NCBI GenBank assembly: GCA_040881505.1
Contig: JBBEDC010000013.1
Span: forward strand, 1 to 40,109
Direction: 5' to 3'
From: Candidatus Anderseniibacteriota bacterium
Lineage (GTDB): Bacteria > Patescibacteriota > Andersenbacteria > UBA10190
DNA length: 40,109 nt
Shown here: piece after piece, positions 35,055 to 37,535 of the stretch
Layout of the letters: every line of letters begins with the position of its first letter
How positions within the stretch are numbered: the stretch's first letter is position 1
Translations under genes and position numbers: made by a program
The notes under the pieces: model-generated
The model's input: only the letters and a program-made list of their open reading frames with translations
Databases searched by the model: none
What the model was told of the DNA's origin: nothing

Positions 35055-35780
35055 ATGTCTTCTCTGGTGATTCCGACCCGGGCGATTGCGCTCGGTCTTC
35101 TGAAGGCTGGTACTTTGAGCCTGCGAGATGTCGATGGGGGCGAAGAGCCTTATCTGTACTCCAGCGGCAATAACGGCCCGGGGTACGTCATGGTCAAGTC
35201 CCTGGGAGGCTGCAAGCCAGTCTTCCGGCAAGCCTGCATCTGGCTGGCTGCCAAAGTCGCCGCAGAACACCCTCAACTCGACTGGGTCGCCGCAAACGCA
35301 ACCGGCGGAATGCCACCTGGTGTGCTCGTCAGTGAGTACCTGGAACACTTCCTCGGCAAGACCATCCCGTACGTCTACATCCGCGGAACTCGCAAGCGCG
35401 GTGGTCACGGTGAGCTCATCACCAATCTGCCAAACAACCCCGACACTCCGTCGGGAAGCAGCGCTGTGGTCATGGAGGAGTTGGTCAACTTCGCAAGCAC
35501 CACCTGCAACAGTGCGGTGTTGCTCCGTGAGGAAGGATATCGTGCAGATCATGCGTGTTGCATCCTCTACTACGGCAACCCGGAAGCCGAGAAGGCGCTG
35601 CAGCGGGATCAGGTCGGTATGACCTATCTTCTCACTCTTTCCACCCTTCTGGAGGTGGCAGAAGAAGAGGGGACTCACCCCGCTGCGCTCGTTCAGAAAT
35701 ACCGCGAGTTTCTCGCCAACCCCCTCAAGTGGCAGTCGGACCGCGGTTTCGAGCCCCGTAAGGAAGGAGGGACGCTGTGA
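35055..35780 (+). CDS. divergent type I phosphoribosyltransferase, OPRT-like (GC-rich cassette)
   Basis: Aligns by eye to E. coli PyrE: ...EPYLYSSG, TGGMPPGV (vs YKGIPIA), YVYIRGTRKRGGHGELI (vs FNRKEAKDHGEGGNLV). The PRPP loop reads AVVMEELVNFASTT (vs VMLVDDVITAGTA). I prefer the ATG at 35055, which follows GAAAGGTG. Confidence 0.7.
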   Translation: MSSLVIPTRAIALGLLKAGTLSLRDVDGGEEPYLYSSGNNGPGYVMVKSLGGCKPVFRQACIWLAAKVAAEHPQLDWVAANATGGMPPGVLVSEYLEHFLGKTIPYVYIRGTRKRGGHGELITNLPNNPDTPSGSSAVVMEELVNFASTTCNSAVLLREEGYRADHACCILYYGNPEAEKALQRDQVGMTYLLTLSTLLEVAEEEGTHPAALVQKYREFLANPLKWQSDRGFEPRKEGGTL

Positions 35781-36475
35781 AGCCTCTGCTTTGCATTGCC
35801 CTTGATGACCTCTGGGAAGAGGAGCACTCCACCCTCACCAAGGTGGAAGCGATACTGCAGAAGGTTCCGCCGGATCGCCTGGTGCTGAAGGCAAACCTCG
35901 ACTTCGCCCTGAAGCGAGGCTTGAAAGACGCTGTTCAGCTGCTTCAAAGCTTCTCCGCGCAACTGTTCGTTGATCTGAAAATGTTCAACGGCAGCAGGAC
36001 AATGGAACGGATTGCCCAGAGTCTCGTCGACCTGGATGTGGACTACTTCAACGTCCATCTTCTGGCCGATAAGGAGAGCAGAACAGCAATCAAGGCTGCC
36101 AAGACCAGCAAGACGCGTGTGCTTGGAGTCACAGTCTTGAGTCACATGGATGAAGGCTACTGTCAACAAATCTTCAAACTGCCACGGAAGAGCGTTGTCA
36201 GAAACCTGGCTCAGCTTGGGAATCGTCTTGGTTGTGATGGGATCATCCTTCCTGCTGACACGATTCCCGTCATTCAACACTCAAGCCTTCTCTGCGCAAC
36301 GGGTATTCGGCCAACTTGGTACAAAGACACCCGCCACGCCGTAGAGACCACGCCAACAAAGGCTGTGGAAATAGGAGCCGACATACTGGTATGCGGCGGT
36401 CCAATCATGAACAGTGAAGACCCCGGGGCAGCTGCCACGCGAATCCTGGACGAGATGGACTCAGTAGGGTTTTGA
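35777..36475 (+). CDS. divergent OMP-decarboxylase-fold protein (GC-rich cassette)
   Basis: Aligns by eye to PyrF: LCIALDD, VLKAN, FVDLKMFNGSRT (vs LDLKFHDIPNT), FNVHLLAD, VLGVTVLSHM, ATGIRP, ADILVCGGP (vs GRP). GTGA overlap with the upstream PRTase gene. Confidence 0.7.
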   Translation: MKPLLCIALDDLWEEEHSTLTKVEAILQKVPPDRLVLKANLDFALKRGLKDAVQLLQSFSAQLFVDLKMFNGSRTMERIAQSLVDLDVDYFNVHLLADKESRTAIKAAKTSKTRVLGVTVLSHMDEGYCQQIFKLPRKSVVRNLAQLGNRLGCDGIILPADTIPVIQHSSLLCATGIRPTWYKDTRHAVETTPTKAVEIGADILVCGGPIMNSEDPGAAATRILDEMDSVGF

Positions 36476-36497: not shown

Positions 36498-36538
36498 GCC
36501 GGACTATGTGCAACACGCACTGGTACGGCTTTTTCTTT
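36498..36538 (+). terminator. probable rho-independent terminator of the PRTase/OMPDC-like pair
   Basis: GCCGGAC...GTACGGC imperfect stem (one mismatch, large loop) followed by TTTTTCTTT. Confidence 0.45.
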
Positions 36539-36550
36539 ACTTCGAATTTG

Positions 36551-36623
36551 TGGGCGGTGCAGGGCTCGAACCTGCGGCCTCCTCGGTGTAAACGAGATGC
36601 TCTACCAACTGAGCTAACCGCCC
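36551..36623 (-). tRNA. tRNA-Val(TAC)
   Basis: The reverse complement folds as GGGCGGT/ACCGCCC acceptor, D-arm GCTC-AGTTGGTA-GAGC, anticodon stem TCTCG/CGAGG, loop TTTACAC, T-arm GCAGG-TTCGAGC-CCTGC. Confidence 0.92.
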
Positions 36624-36624
36624 T

Positions 36625-36935
36625 TGGTGCCACGGGTCAGAATCGAACTGACAACGCCAGCCTCTTCCATAATATAAGGCTAATGGACTATATCATCACC
36701 CACTACAAGCAAGACGCTTGGGTGGGGCTGGGCGCTTCCACTGCAACTGTTGCAATGTACTCCCCGAAGGGATAGTCTCTACACCTTCCTAAATCTGTTT
36801 TCTAAAACAGGTTTAGGCTTGGCTCGGGATTACCTGGCGTAAAGGTTTCCCCGAATTCACCCAGTTTTTTACCACCTGTTACCAGATGGGGCCCCGAAGA
36901 TTCAGGGCTGCGCTCTACCATTGAGCTACCGTGGC
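36625..36935 (-). tRNA. tRNA-Phe(GAA) interrupted by a group I intron (exons 36935-36904 and 36667-36625; CCA encoded)
   Basis: 5' exon is GCCACGG-TA-GCTC-AATGGTA-GAGC-G-CAGCC-CT. 3' exon is GAAGA-GGCTG-GCGTT-GTCAG-TTCGATT-CTGAC-CCGTGGC-A-CCA. Joined, they give a canonical cloverleaf with anticodon loop CTGAAGA. Confidence 0.85.
36668..36903 (-). ncRNA. group I intron, IC3-like, ORF-less (~236 nt)
   Basis: P1 pairs exon GCCCU with intron GGGGC, giving U.G at the 5' splice site. The intron ends in G (..UUAUG). P2 is CCATCTG-GTAA-CAGGTGG with a GNRA loop. Core motifs GAATTCGGGGAAACC (36858-36844), CCCGAGCCAAGCC (36828-36816) and GAAGGTGTAGAGACTA (36788-36773) closely match my recollection of the Azoarcus tRNA-Ile intron core. 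P8 carries a TTCG tetraloop. Confidence 0.8.
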
Positions 36936-37032
36936 ATATTTAGTTGTAGATAGAGGATAGCGGAAGAGGCGCTAATTATCAACAAAAGGGGCTTGCTCAA
37001 ATAGAAGATATTTCGTACAAATACTACACGTT

Positions 37033-37104
37033 GCGGGTATCGTATAGTGGCTATTATAGCTGGTTGCCAATCAGCAGACACGGGTTCGACTCCCGTTACC
37101 CGCT
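37033..37104 (+). tRNA. tRNA-Gly(GCC)
   Basis: Acceptor GCGGGTA/TACCCGC, anticodon stem GCTGG/TCAGC, loop TTGCCAA, T-arm ACGGG-TTCGACT-CCCGT, discriminator T. Confidence 0.9.
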
Positions 37105-37151
37105 CACTGGGAAAGAAGGCTATACAAAATGAGTGATGATATGGTAGGTAT

Positions 37152-37535
37152 ATGTTTAACAGGATTCACCATATAGCAATCATCTGCTCTGACTATCAGA
37201 AATCTAAGCATTTTTATACAAAAATCCTGGGACTTTCTGTATTGAATGAGACGTATCGCGCAGAAAGAGACTCTTACAAGCTGGATTTGAAAGTTGGCGA
37301 GCTATACCAAATAGAGCTTTTTTCCTTTCCCAGCCCGCCAATAAGAACGAGTAATCCCGAAGCTGCTGGGTTACGGCATTTGGCCTTCGAGGTTGATAAT
37401 GTTGAAAGAGTCGTAAGCCACATTATCGATGCAGGAATAGCCGTAGAGGATATAAGGGTTGATGAACATACGGGGAAGAAGTTCACTTTTTTTGCCGACC
37501 CCGACGGACTGCCGCTTGAAATATATGAGAAATAA
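37152..37535 (+). CDS. VOC/glyoxalase I family protein
   Basis: 127 aa. IHHIAIICSDYQKSKHFYTKILGL ... GLRHLAFEVD ... FFADPDGLPLEIYE are typical paired beta-alpha-beta-beta-beta modules. Confidence 0.85.
   Translation: MFNRIHHIAIICSDYQKSKHFYTKILGLSVLNETYRAERDSYKLDLKVGELYQIELFSFPSPPIRTSNPEAAGLRHLAFEVDNVERVVSHIIDAGIAVEDIRVDEHTGKKFTFFADPDGLPLEIYEK

Follow-up and report, generated by a model that had tools for sequence, protein, structure and literature searches.

A group I intron without an open reading frame splits tRNA-Phe(GAA) after U33 in a Candidatus Andersenbacteria contig and has relatives in the tRNA genes of candidate phyla radiation bacteria

The stretch of DNA analyzed here, called the window below, comprises 40,109 nucleotides of contig JBBEDC010000013.1 from a Candidatus Anderseniibacteriota assembly (GCA_040881505.1) and contains a tRNA-Phe(GAA) gene that is interrupted in its anticodon loop by a group I intron. 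On the minus strand, positions 36935-36625 consist of a 5' tRNA half of 32 nt, an insert of 236 nt and a 3' half of 43 nt:

36904..36935, minus strand: 5' exon of tRNA-Phe(GAA), tRNA positions 1-33, with U33 as its last base (sequence; ARAGORN, both with the exons joined and in its intron mode)
36668..36903, minus strand: group I intron of 236 nt without an open reading frame (ORF) (Rfam RF00028, minimum free energy fold, covariation)
36625..36667, minus strand: 3' exon of tRNA-Phe, tRNA positions 34-76, GAAGAGGCUGG...GGCACCA, with an encoded CCA (ARAGORN; sequence)

The 5' exon reads GCCACGGTAGCTCAATGGTAGAGCGCAGCCCT and ends in ...CAGCCCU, and the intron opens with GAAUC (GAAUCUUCGGGGC) and closes with AUUAUG. 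Run on the window with default settings, ARAGORN reported five tRNAs, and tRNA-Phe was not among them. When the two exons were joined, the same program recognized a tRNA-Phe(gaa) of 75 nt, its cloverleaf perfect and its anticodon loop CUGAAGA; in intron mode it recovered the split gene with an intron of 236 nt. A first-pass annotation made from the letters of this DNA had described two such halves, 236 nt apart and joining into a perfect cloverleaf with this loop, and ARAGORN bore out its coordinates and strand.

The insert had also been called a group I intron. A search with the Rfam model Intron_gpI (RF00028) matched positions 36913-36665 of the minus strand over the full model (model positions 1-253), with a score of 62.3 bits against a gathering score of 50 and an E value of 1.3e-13, which is far beyond chance. 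The lack of a P3-P7 pseudoknot had been named as a finding that would speak against this assignment; the P3/P7 topology that we found is that of group I introns, and the core strings that had been quoted are present in the intron. The sole ORF called mechanically at this place (36506-36775, plus strand, 89 amino acids) was ruled out as an intron ORF, being on the opposite strand and overlapping the adjoining tRNA-Val gene, in agreement with the earlier description of the intron as ORF-less. The reading that we favor, with a probability of about 0.85, is that an ORF-less group I intron interrupts the Candidatus Andersenbacteria tRNA-Phe(GAA) between U33 and G34, that it is a member of a family of tRNA introns in bacteria of the candidate phyla radiation (CPR), and that it would have to be removed at the RNA level.

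The position of the splice sites follows from the pairing of the exons with the intron. Because GAA is repeated at both junctions, four splice registers yield an identical product and cannot be distinguished by it. U33|G34 is the only register in which a U precedes the 5' splice site, stands opposite a G in P1 and is combined with a terminal intron G (omegaG, at 36668). The elements concerned are as follows:

36904..36908, minus strand: exon strand of P1, GCCCU, tRNA positions 29-33, pairing with GGGGC
36891..36895, minus strand: P1 strand of the internal guide, GGGGC (sequence; pairing in relatives)
36896..36900, minus strand: P10 strand of the internal guide, UCUUC, pairing with GAAGA of the 3' exon (36667-36663)

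Since UCUUC lies directly 5' of the P1 guide, both P1 and P10 are set by one contiguous guide, UCUUC-GGGGC. Three nucleotides of the P1 exon strand (G29, C30 and C31) belong to the anticodon stem. P10 is one pair longer in most relatives (6 bp) than in the window (5 bp). In an alignment of 30 tRNA-Phe introns (alignment A3), the pairs U33.G, C32-G and C31-G are each kept in 30/30 sequences, and perfect covariation links position 30 to its guide partner (G-C in 22, C-G in 8). Four pairs of P10 are likewise kept in 30/30 sequences and the fifth in 27/30. That U33 ends the 5' exon and forms a U.G pair in a 5-bp P1 (GCCCU/GGGGC), with G as the last intron base, had been recognized in the first reading of the sequence.

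An intron at register 34/35, 35/36 or 36/37 would give the same spliced product, and the registers are not separable by product sequence; moreover, the intron mode of ARAGORN puts the junction one base further along. We nevertheless consider these registers very improbable and ruled them out by the U.G and omegaG rules: register 33/34 alone gives both U.G in P1 and a terminal G, and it is kept with a contiguous P10 in 30/30 homologues. Bacterial tRNA-Phe usually has A37. The window (loop CUGAAGA, 36663-36667) and all 29 other split tRNA-Phe genes have G37, which is part of P10.

We then compared the intron with its relatives helix by helix, using alignment A3 and a second alignment, A2, of 26 short family members from all three hosts of the family (tRNA-Phe, tRNA-Asn and tRNA-Asp). 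The helices in the window are:

36872..36889, minus strand: P2 hairpin, 7 bp, with the GNRA loop GUAA; both-side changes at 7/7 pairs in both alignments
36858..36864, minus strand: 5' strand of P3, CUGGGUG, paired with CGCCCAG (36734-36728); 99.5% paired, compensatory changes at 3 pairs
36783..36854, minus strand: P4-P5-P6/P6a domain; P4 100% paired with 4 covarying pairs, P6a covarying at 6/6
36773..36779, minus strand: 5' strand of P7, G[A]GACUA with a bulged A, paired with UAGUCC (36690-36685); the guanosine-binding helix, invariant in 30/30 and 26/26
36761..36772, minus strand: P7.1 hairpin, UCCC-UUCG-GGGA, an insert relative to the Rfam consensus
36739..36757, minus strand: P7.2 hairpin, CAUUGCA-ACAGU-UGCAGUG, with 7 bp counted; adding an eighth, A-U, would reduce the loop to CAG
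36699..36726, minus strand: P8 hairpin, with covariation at 3/5 outer pairs
36668..36684, minus strand: 3' tail, AUUAGCCUUAUAUUAUG, 17 nt, without a P9 hairpin and ending in omegaG (sequence)

The P2 hairpin with its GNRA cap is as originally noted. The 36 nt between the 5' strand of P7 and the 3' strand of P3 are a pure insertion relative to the Rfam consensus and fold as P7.1 and P7.2. An unconstrained minimum free energy fold recovered P2, P3, P6a, P7.1, P7.2 and P8, with z = -3.5 relative to dinucleotide shuffles. In A2, 83.3% of the pair cells were paired, compared with 66.1% in column shuffles (0/500 reaching the observed value), and the covariation score was 0.433, compared with 0.135 when shuffled and at most 0.11 when the partners were slid; both-side changes were found at 7/7 pairs of P2, 4/6 of P4, 3/3 of P5, 6/6 of P6a and 6/6 of P7.2. 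The corresponding values in A3 were 94.7% against 81.1% (0/500) for pairing and 0.373 against 0.128 (shuffled) and at most 0.087 (slid) for covariation, with double changes at 26/49 pairs. P7.1 is 97.6% paired in A3, whose members were selected regardless of P7.1, and occurs in the variants CCC/GGG, UCC/GGA and CCU/AGG. P7.2 is 91.7% paired in A2, and because all six of its counted pairs covary there, it is a selected structure. Taken with the pairing kept at the splice sites, these values point to purifying selection on both the ribozyme fold and its recognition of the exons, acting in many independent lineages, which is not what a dead insertion would look like.

The first-pass annotation had further assigned the intron to type IC3, and this part did not hold. 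In IC3 introns the 3' strand of P3 follows P7 directly, with no P7.1 or P7.2 (Michel-Westhof scheme; Azoarcus structure). In the window the two are separated by the 36-nt two-hairpin insert, and the P9 hairpin with a GNRA loop that would precede omegaG is missing, the Rfam alignment of P9 being poor. Group I classes are told apart partly by peripheral elements such as P2, P7.1 and P7.2 (PMC3984707), and a survey of IStron introns counts P7.1 and P7.2 with an extended P9 among the features of class IA2 (PMC4227781). In the structure of the Twort intron, as cited in PMC1995217, the P7.1/P7.2 hairpins encircle the guanosine pocket. Set against class IA2, the window intron has the P7.1 and P7.2 hairpins and lacks the extended P9 (P9.0, P9.1, P9.2), its relatives having a single P9 hairpin at most. 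By its predicted structure, the element combines an IC3-like core with an IA-type P7 extension; we class it as a group I intron, leave the subgroup unassigned and do not file it under IC3.

A classical IC3 tRNA intron that was direct kin of the introns in Azoarcus tRNA-Ile and cyanobacterial tRNA-Leu and had moved to a new tRNA would also be small and ORF-less, with a GNRA-capped P2 and a position in the anticodon loop, and the J3/4-P4, P4'-P6 and J6/7-P7 strings of the window do align well to the Rfam consensus. The core also appears to resemble that of the Azoarcus intron, a likeness judged through the Rfam consensus alignment. Such a direct kinship is unlikely, however, in view of the two hairpins that separate P7 from P3' and have no counterpart in the Rfam consensus, of the covariation of P7.2 at 6/6 pairs and the listing of P7.1 and P7.2 as IA2-class features, of a P7-P7.1 21-mer that is identical in phage introns outside tRNAs, of the missing P9 hairpin and of the extension of P1 into the anticodon stem.

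In keeping with a mixed character, the intron shares features with two known groups. Like the known bacterial tRNA introns, it is a small group I ribozyme in an anticodon loop with a U.G pair in P1, an omegaG and a GNRA-loop P2, with a very similar P3-P4-P6-P7 core (as judged via the Rfam consensus) and with members both with and without an endonuclease ORF. Unlike them, it resides in tRNA-Phe(GAA) at site 33/34, has P7.1 and P7.2 but no P9, takes three anticodon-stem nucleotides into P1 and has a tail that pairs with the stem strand of the 3' exon; its lineage is CPR/Patescibacteria as opposed to cyanobacteria and alpha- or betaproteobacteria (PMC4033280, PMC11408192, PMC8450103). With phage introns of subgroup IA (T4 td, Twort orf142 and the IStron ribozymes) it shares the two hairpins between P7 and P3', and its relatives, like phage introns, include members with HNH endonuclease ORFs. 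Those phage introns lie in protein-coding genes, however, whereas the window intron lies in a tRNA, and in contrast to class IA2 (PMC4227781) the extended P9 is missing and P4-P6 and J3/4 look IC3-like.

The distribution of the family was determined in two scans. In the first, the exact P7-P7.1 20-mer GACUAUCCCUUCGGGGAGUA was searched for in one-genome-per-species GTDB contigs, giving at least 80 loci. Among the matches listed, 67 of 80 had the 20-mer inside an intron-split tRNA, and almost all came from Patescibacteria/CPR bins (Saccharibacteria, Parcubacteria-group phyla, Absconditabacterales and others). By host, the matches listed fall into 54 loci in tRNA-Asn(GUU), 7 in tRNA-Phe(GAA), 5 in tRNA-Asp(GUC) and 1 degenerate copy. 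The insertion site is 35/36 in the tRNA-Asn and tRNA-Asp genes and 33/34 in the tRNA-Phe genes. The second scan covered metagenome contigs with a pattern built from the tRNA-Phe junction and guide, which was looser than intended: 23 of the 120 loci listed were true matches, giving at least 23 further intron-split tRNA-Phe(GAA) genes. The exact P7.1 motif is missing from 22 of these 23 introns, so that the tRNA-Phe family extends beyond what the first scan could show.

Altogether, public CPR genomes and metagenomes contain at least 29 further intron-split tRNA-Phe(GAA) genes, all cut at the same site, so that the uniqueness implied by the earlier reading of the locus is not upheld. At least 59 relatives reside in tRNA-Asn(GUU) and tRNA-Asp(GUC), and the wider family comprises at least 89 intact split tRNAs, at least 30 of them tRNA-Phe. 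The window itself carries the 20-mer, has its intron in the anticodon loop and comes from a CPR genome.

The intron mode of ARAGORN labeled a number of hosts as Thr(UGU), His(GUG) or Ser(UGA) (L011, L015, L018, L032, L033, L034, L038, L051-L055, L069, L071, L075, L078, L084, L086 and L089). We rejected these labels and assigned the genes to tRNA-Asn(GUU) on account of their exon bodies (UCCG...GGAGC), their CUGU|...G|UAA junctions and a guide GCAG that places the U.G pair at U35. The published "Thr TGT" intron-containing tRNA of Ca. Minimicrobia vallesae (PMC8694215) may be the same miscall of a tRNA-Asn(GUU).

BLAST searches against phage genomes gave short matches in two phages. In the Prevotella megaphage Lak-A1 the match spans the P7-P7.1 segment with 94% identity; in Pseudoalteromonas phage pYD6-A it is a genuine group I intron, which has a long insert in the corresponding position. 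The 21-mer AGACUAUCCCUUCGGGGAGUA occurs in seven IMG/VR contigs, six of which have Rfam group I introns, none within a tRNA. The Lak-A1 locus (L001, MK250015.1, ~209160-209630) and the IMG/VR loci (L003-L009) are non-tRNA group I introns whose 21-nt P7-P7.1 segment is identical to that of the window. This shared segment is a sign of exchange between phages and CPR bacteria.

Thirty tRNA-Asn relatives are longer (~600-720 nt) and contain an ORF of ~102-182 amino acids (most 104-118) with a CxxC...HH motif. Three of these ORFs (104, 135 and 149 amino acids) matched the Pfam HNH family (PF01844; gathering score 21.4 bits) weakly, scoring 17.9, 19.9 and 22.0 bits. In one relative (L041, 4119-4754; pre-tRNA nucleotides 69-380), an HNH-like ORF of 104 amino acids lies in the P1 loop, starting ~35 nt past the 5' splice site and reading through the guide into P2. 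This unusual position implies a need to coordinate translation with ribozyme folding. As long tRNA-Asn relatives carry HNH-like ORFs, the family looks like a mobile one driven by homing endonucleases; the window copy encodes no endonuclease and would then be an ORF-less derivative.

The tRNA-Phe introns are themselves diverse. In a second type, found at metagenome loci L105, L159, L167, L172, L173, L176, L183, L199 and L201, a single hairpin replaces P7.1 and P7.2; the 17-19 nt of its loop, GUGAGUCCCAACAAUAAUC, hardly vary, and J8/7 has GAUGAGAUAGUCC in place of GAUGAUAUAGUCC. Another tRNA-Phe intron (L195, 4889-5196) shows P4 (GCUGG/CAGC) and GGUUCAGAGACUA variants of the core that elsewhere characterize the members in tRNA-Asn, tRNA-Asp and phages, which suggests core exchange or retargeting between tRNA hosts. 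The degenerate locus (L028, 53-653) is without P8, J8/7 and the 3' strand of P7, and its 3' exon has no start; a dead copy or a misassembly is the probable explanation.

We next considered how an intron without P9 could hold its 3' exon. An ordinary P9 hairpin, in most cases GNRA-looped, is present in six of the 30 tRNA-Phe introns; the other 24, including that of the window, are short-tailed. In about 14 of these 24 the short tail holds a near-copy of the 5' strand of the anticodon stem, which changes when the exon changes:

Window and L199: tail UAGCC, stem strand of the 3' exon GGCUG
L167: tail UAGCC, stem strand of the 3' exon GGCUA
L183: tail UUACC, stem strand of the 3' exon GGUAG
L173: tail CACGC, stem strand of the 3' exon GCGUG
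L181: tail CAUUU, stem strand of the 3' exon GGAUG
L017 group: tail UCGC, stem strand of the 3' exon GCGA
L101: tail GUCGU, stem strand of the 3' exon GCGAU

In the window, UAGCC (36682-36678) can pair with the stem strand GGCUG (36662-36658) of the 3' exon, and RNAfold gives -7.6 kcal/mol for tail plus exon. Where a tail differs from the true stem strand, the difference is mostly C-to-U (giving U.G) or G-to-A (giving A-U), so that pairing is kept. Over 22 distinct short-tailed relatives, the duplexes of tails with their own exons had a mean of -3.6 kcal/mol, compared with -2.13 +/- 0.27 kcal/mol when exons were permuted (0/5000). P1 engages stem nucleotides 29 or 30 to 31 in the tRNA-Phe introns. 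As P1 thus takes the 5' strand of the anticodon stem, we infer that the tail holds the displaced 3' strand, where it may help to place omegaG and the 3' splice site and so substitute for P9.

The following pathway is proposed on this basis. The split gene would be transcribed, probably jointly with the adjoining tRNA-Val, and the intron would fold into its P3-P9 and P4-P6 core, braced by P2 with its GNRA loop and by P7.1/P7.2. The GGGGC guide would pair with exon positions 29-33 (GCCCU) to form P1, putting U33.G at the cleavage site and partly opening the anticodon stem, and an external guanosine held in P7 would attack 3' of U33. The neighboring guide UCUUC would pair with GAAGA, the first five bases of the 3' exon, as P10; the terminal G (36668) would take the place of the external G in P7, and the exons would be ligated. 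While P1 occupies the real 5' strand, the tail UAGCC, as its near-copy, could hold GGCUG. Ligation would restore the loop CUGAAGA, and the anticodon stem would re-form.

Seen more generally, exon holding in the P9-less tRNA-Phe introns could be a "stem swap," in which the 5' strand of the anticodon stem is captured by P1 and the 3' strand by a near-copy that the intron carries just ahead of omegaG. An exon-specific helix that co-evolves with the host tRNA, and not P9/P9.0, would in that case set the 3' splice site. Given the spread of the family, ribozyme splicing might on this view be a routine, possibly essential step of tRNA maturation in CPR bacteria and a systematic cause of "missing" tRNAs in annotations. 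We put forward this wider proposal tentatively and rate its chances somewhat below even.

Several points weigh against our reading of the window intron. MAFFT was used for the alignments, and drawing the structure from the window's own sequence gives that structure some advantage in the slid controls. The tail-exon pairing is absent in about 10 of the 24 short-tailed relatives and hence is not indispensable. In addition, the window intron has no P9 hairpin, and the proposed tail-exon helix encloses a 15-nt loop; because of both features, catalysis might need a protein helper. Finally, our view of the genome spans 40 kb, and an intact second tRNA-Phe may lie elsewhere.

This last point, together with the missing P9 and the example of the clearly degenerate relative L028, which lacks P8 and the P7 3' strand, would fit a dead copy, that is, an intron that no longer splices while an uninterrupted tRNA-Phe gene elsewhere supplies the tRNA. 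A dead copy would not, however, be expected to retain intact catalytic-core helices, U.G pair, omegaG and P10, all under covariation-preserving selection in 30 homologues, or exons that give a flawless cloverleaf with CCA. We found no second tRNA-Phe in the 40-kb window and no intronless tRNA-Phe in ~200 fetched loci, and a study of circularized CPR genomes recovered tRNAs for every amino acid, some being hard to detect owing to group I introns (PMC8172020). We regard a dead copy as improbable.

A need for a protein cofactor or RNA chaperone in the cell is compatible with a true group I intron at this site and is less a rival than a qualification. The usual P9 and its L9 tertiary brace are missing, P1 must compete with the anticodon stem, and in vivo many introns of group I depend on helpers (Hausner 2014, PMC3984707). 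On the other hand, the core is compact and GC-rich, and the P2 GNRA loop and P7.1/P7.2 lend peripheral stabilization; there is no maturase-like ORF in the intron, and no candidate cofactor is evident nearby. A requirement of this kind is possible, although we think the intron is likelier to do without it.

The window is a piece of a bacterial chromosome, and its GyrA matches agree with the named host. Its genes include gyrA, nusA, tig, those for RNase Y and a membrane pyrophosphatase, and a gene for a ClpB-family AAA+ ATPase that scores below the ClpB cut-off. GyrA, encoded 20 kb from the tRNA-Phe gene, is 89% identical to a Candidatus Andersenbacteria protein, and many further top matches bear the same name; NCBI places them in the Patescibacteria group, Parcubacteria group, Candidatus Anderseniibacteriota. 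Close to the split gene are:

36550..36623, minus strand: tRNA-Val(UAC), 1 nt downstream of the encoded CCA of tRNA-Phe
36954..36982, minus strand: weak sigma-70-like promoter match, TTGATA-17-TATCCT, 19 nt upstream of tRNA-Phe (9/12 matches, by consensus scan only)
37033-37105: tRNA-Gly(GCC), divergently oriented

The tRNA-Phe and tRNA-Val genes probably share one transcript, and RNase P would therefore cleave tRNA-Val 1 nt past the 3' end of tRNA-Phe. Two nearby protein genes stand out. One, at 37152-37535, encodes a glyoxalase/VOC family protein that is ~73% identical to proteins from Mucilaginibacter (Bacteroidota) and Brasilonema (cyanobacteria), a similarity that suggests recent horizontal transfer. 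The other, at 35777-36475, is an OMP-decarboxylase-family gene with 16 relatives at E < 1e-30 in 5.8 billion proteins, the best of them 50% identical; for a CPR bacterium, such a divergent gene of nucleotide metabolism is unusual. The neighborhoods of the homologues of these two genes were not syntenic with the window and contained no tRNA-Phe, and an exact-sequence look-up of the window pyrophosphatase, made in search of orthologous Andersenbacteria loci, returned no match.

Reviews place bacterial tRNA group I introns in cyanobacteria and in alpha- and betaproteobacteria (PMC4033280, PMC11408192), with individual reports of a tRNA-Leu intron in Burkholderia (PMC2686568), a tRNA-fMet intron in cyanobacteria and a tRNA-Ile2 intron in Acidovorax and Burkholderia (PMC8450103). 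Inserts of 22-49 nt described as group I introns in cyanobacterial Arg, Gly and Lys tRNAs (PMC5733544) were set aside as irrelevant, since they are too short for ribozymes. The metagenomics literature does record group I introns in CPR rRNA and tRNA genes, and thus in the host group of the window, and Ibrahim et al. 2021, with reference to Castelle et al. 2018, report a single intron-containing tRNA in each of two Saccharibacteria genomes (PMC8694215). The CPR intron literature that we searched gives no systematic account of host tRNAs, splice sites, structure class or family relationships and leaves tRNA-Phe unmentioned. A full-text literature search likewise found no description of a tRNA-Phe group I intron, of the 33/34 site or of the structural family, although its coverage was incomplete and an earlier description is possible. 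The suggestion of the first-pass annotation that this is a new host and homing site therefore stands in part: tRNA-Phe is absent from the host lists of the reviews (Leu, fMet, Ile, Arg), but the same intron occupies the same site in at least 29 other CPR contigs, and CPR tRNA introns have been mentioned in passing (PMC8172020, PMC8694215).

In reviews up to 2024, group I introns of bacterial tRNAs are presented as restricted to cyanobacteria and a few proteobacteria, in Leu, fMet, Ile and Arg tRNAs. The locus described here adds a tRNA-Phe host, a cut at 33/34 and an IC3-like core combined with IA-type P7.1/P7.2, often without P9, and belongs to a barely described family that is common in tRNA-Phe, tRNA-Asn and tRNA-Asp of CPR/Patescibacteria and related to phage introns. 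Some having P9 and some lacking it, and furnished with two kinds of P7.x element and with tails matched to the exons, its members offer natural variants for the study of exon recognition. Standard tRNA finders miss or mislabel these split genes, as ARAGORN did by default with the window tRNA-Phe and in intron mode with many tRNA-Asn genes, and CPR tRNA censuses, completeness estimates and codon-usage inferences are therefore distorted. If the split gene is the sole tRNA-Phe gene of its genome, the ribozyme would be essential for translation in a minimal-genome organism.

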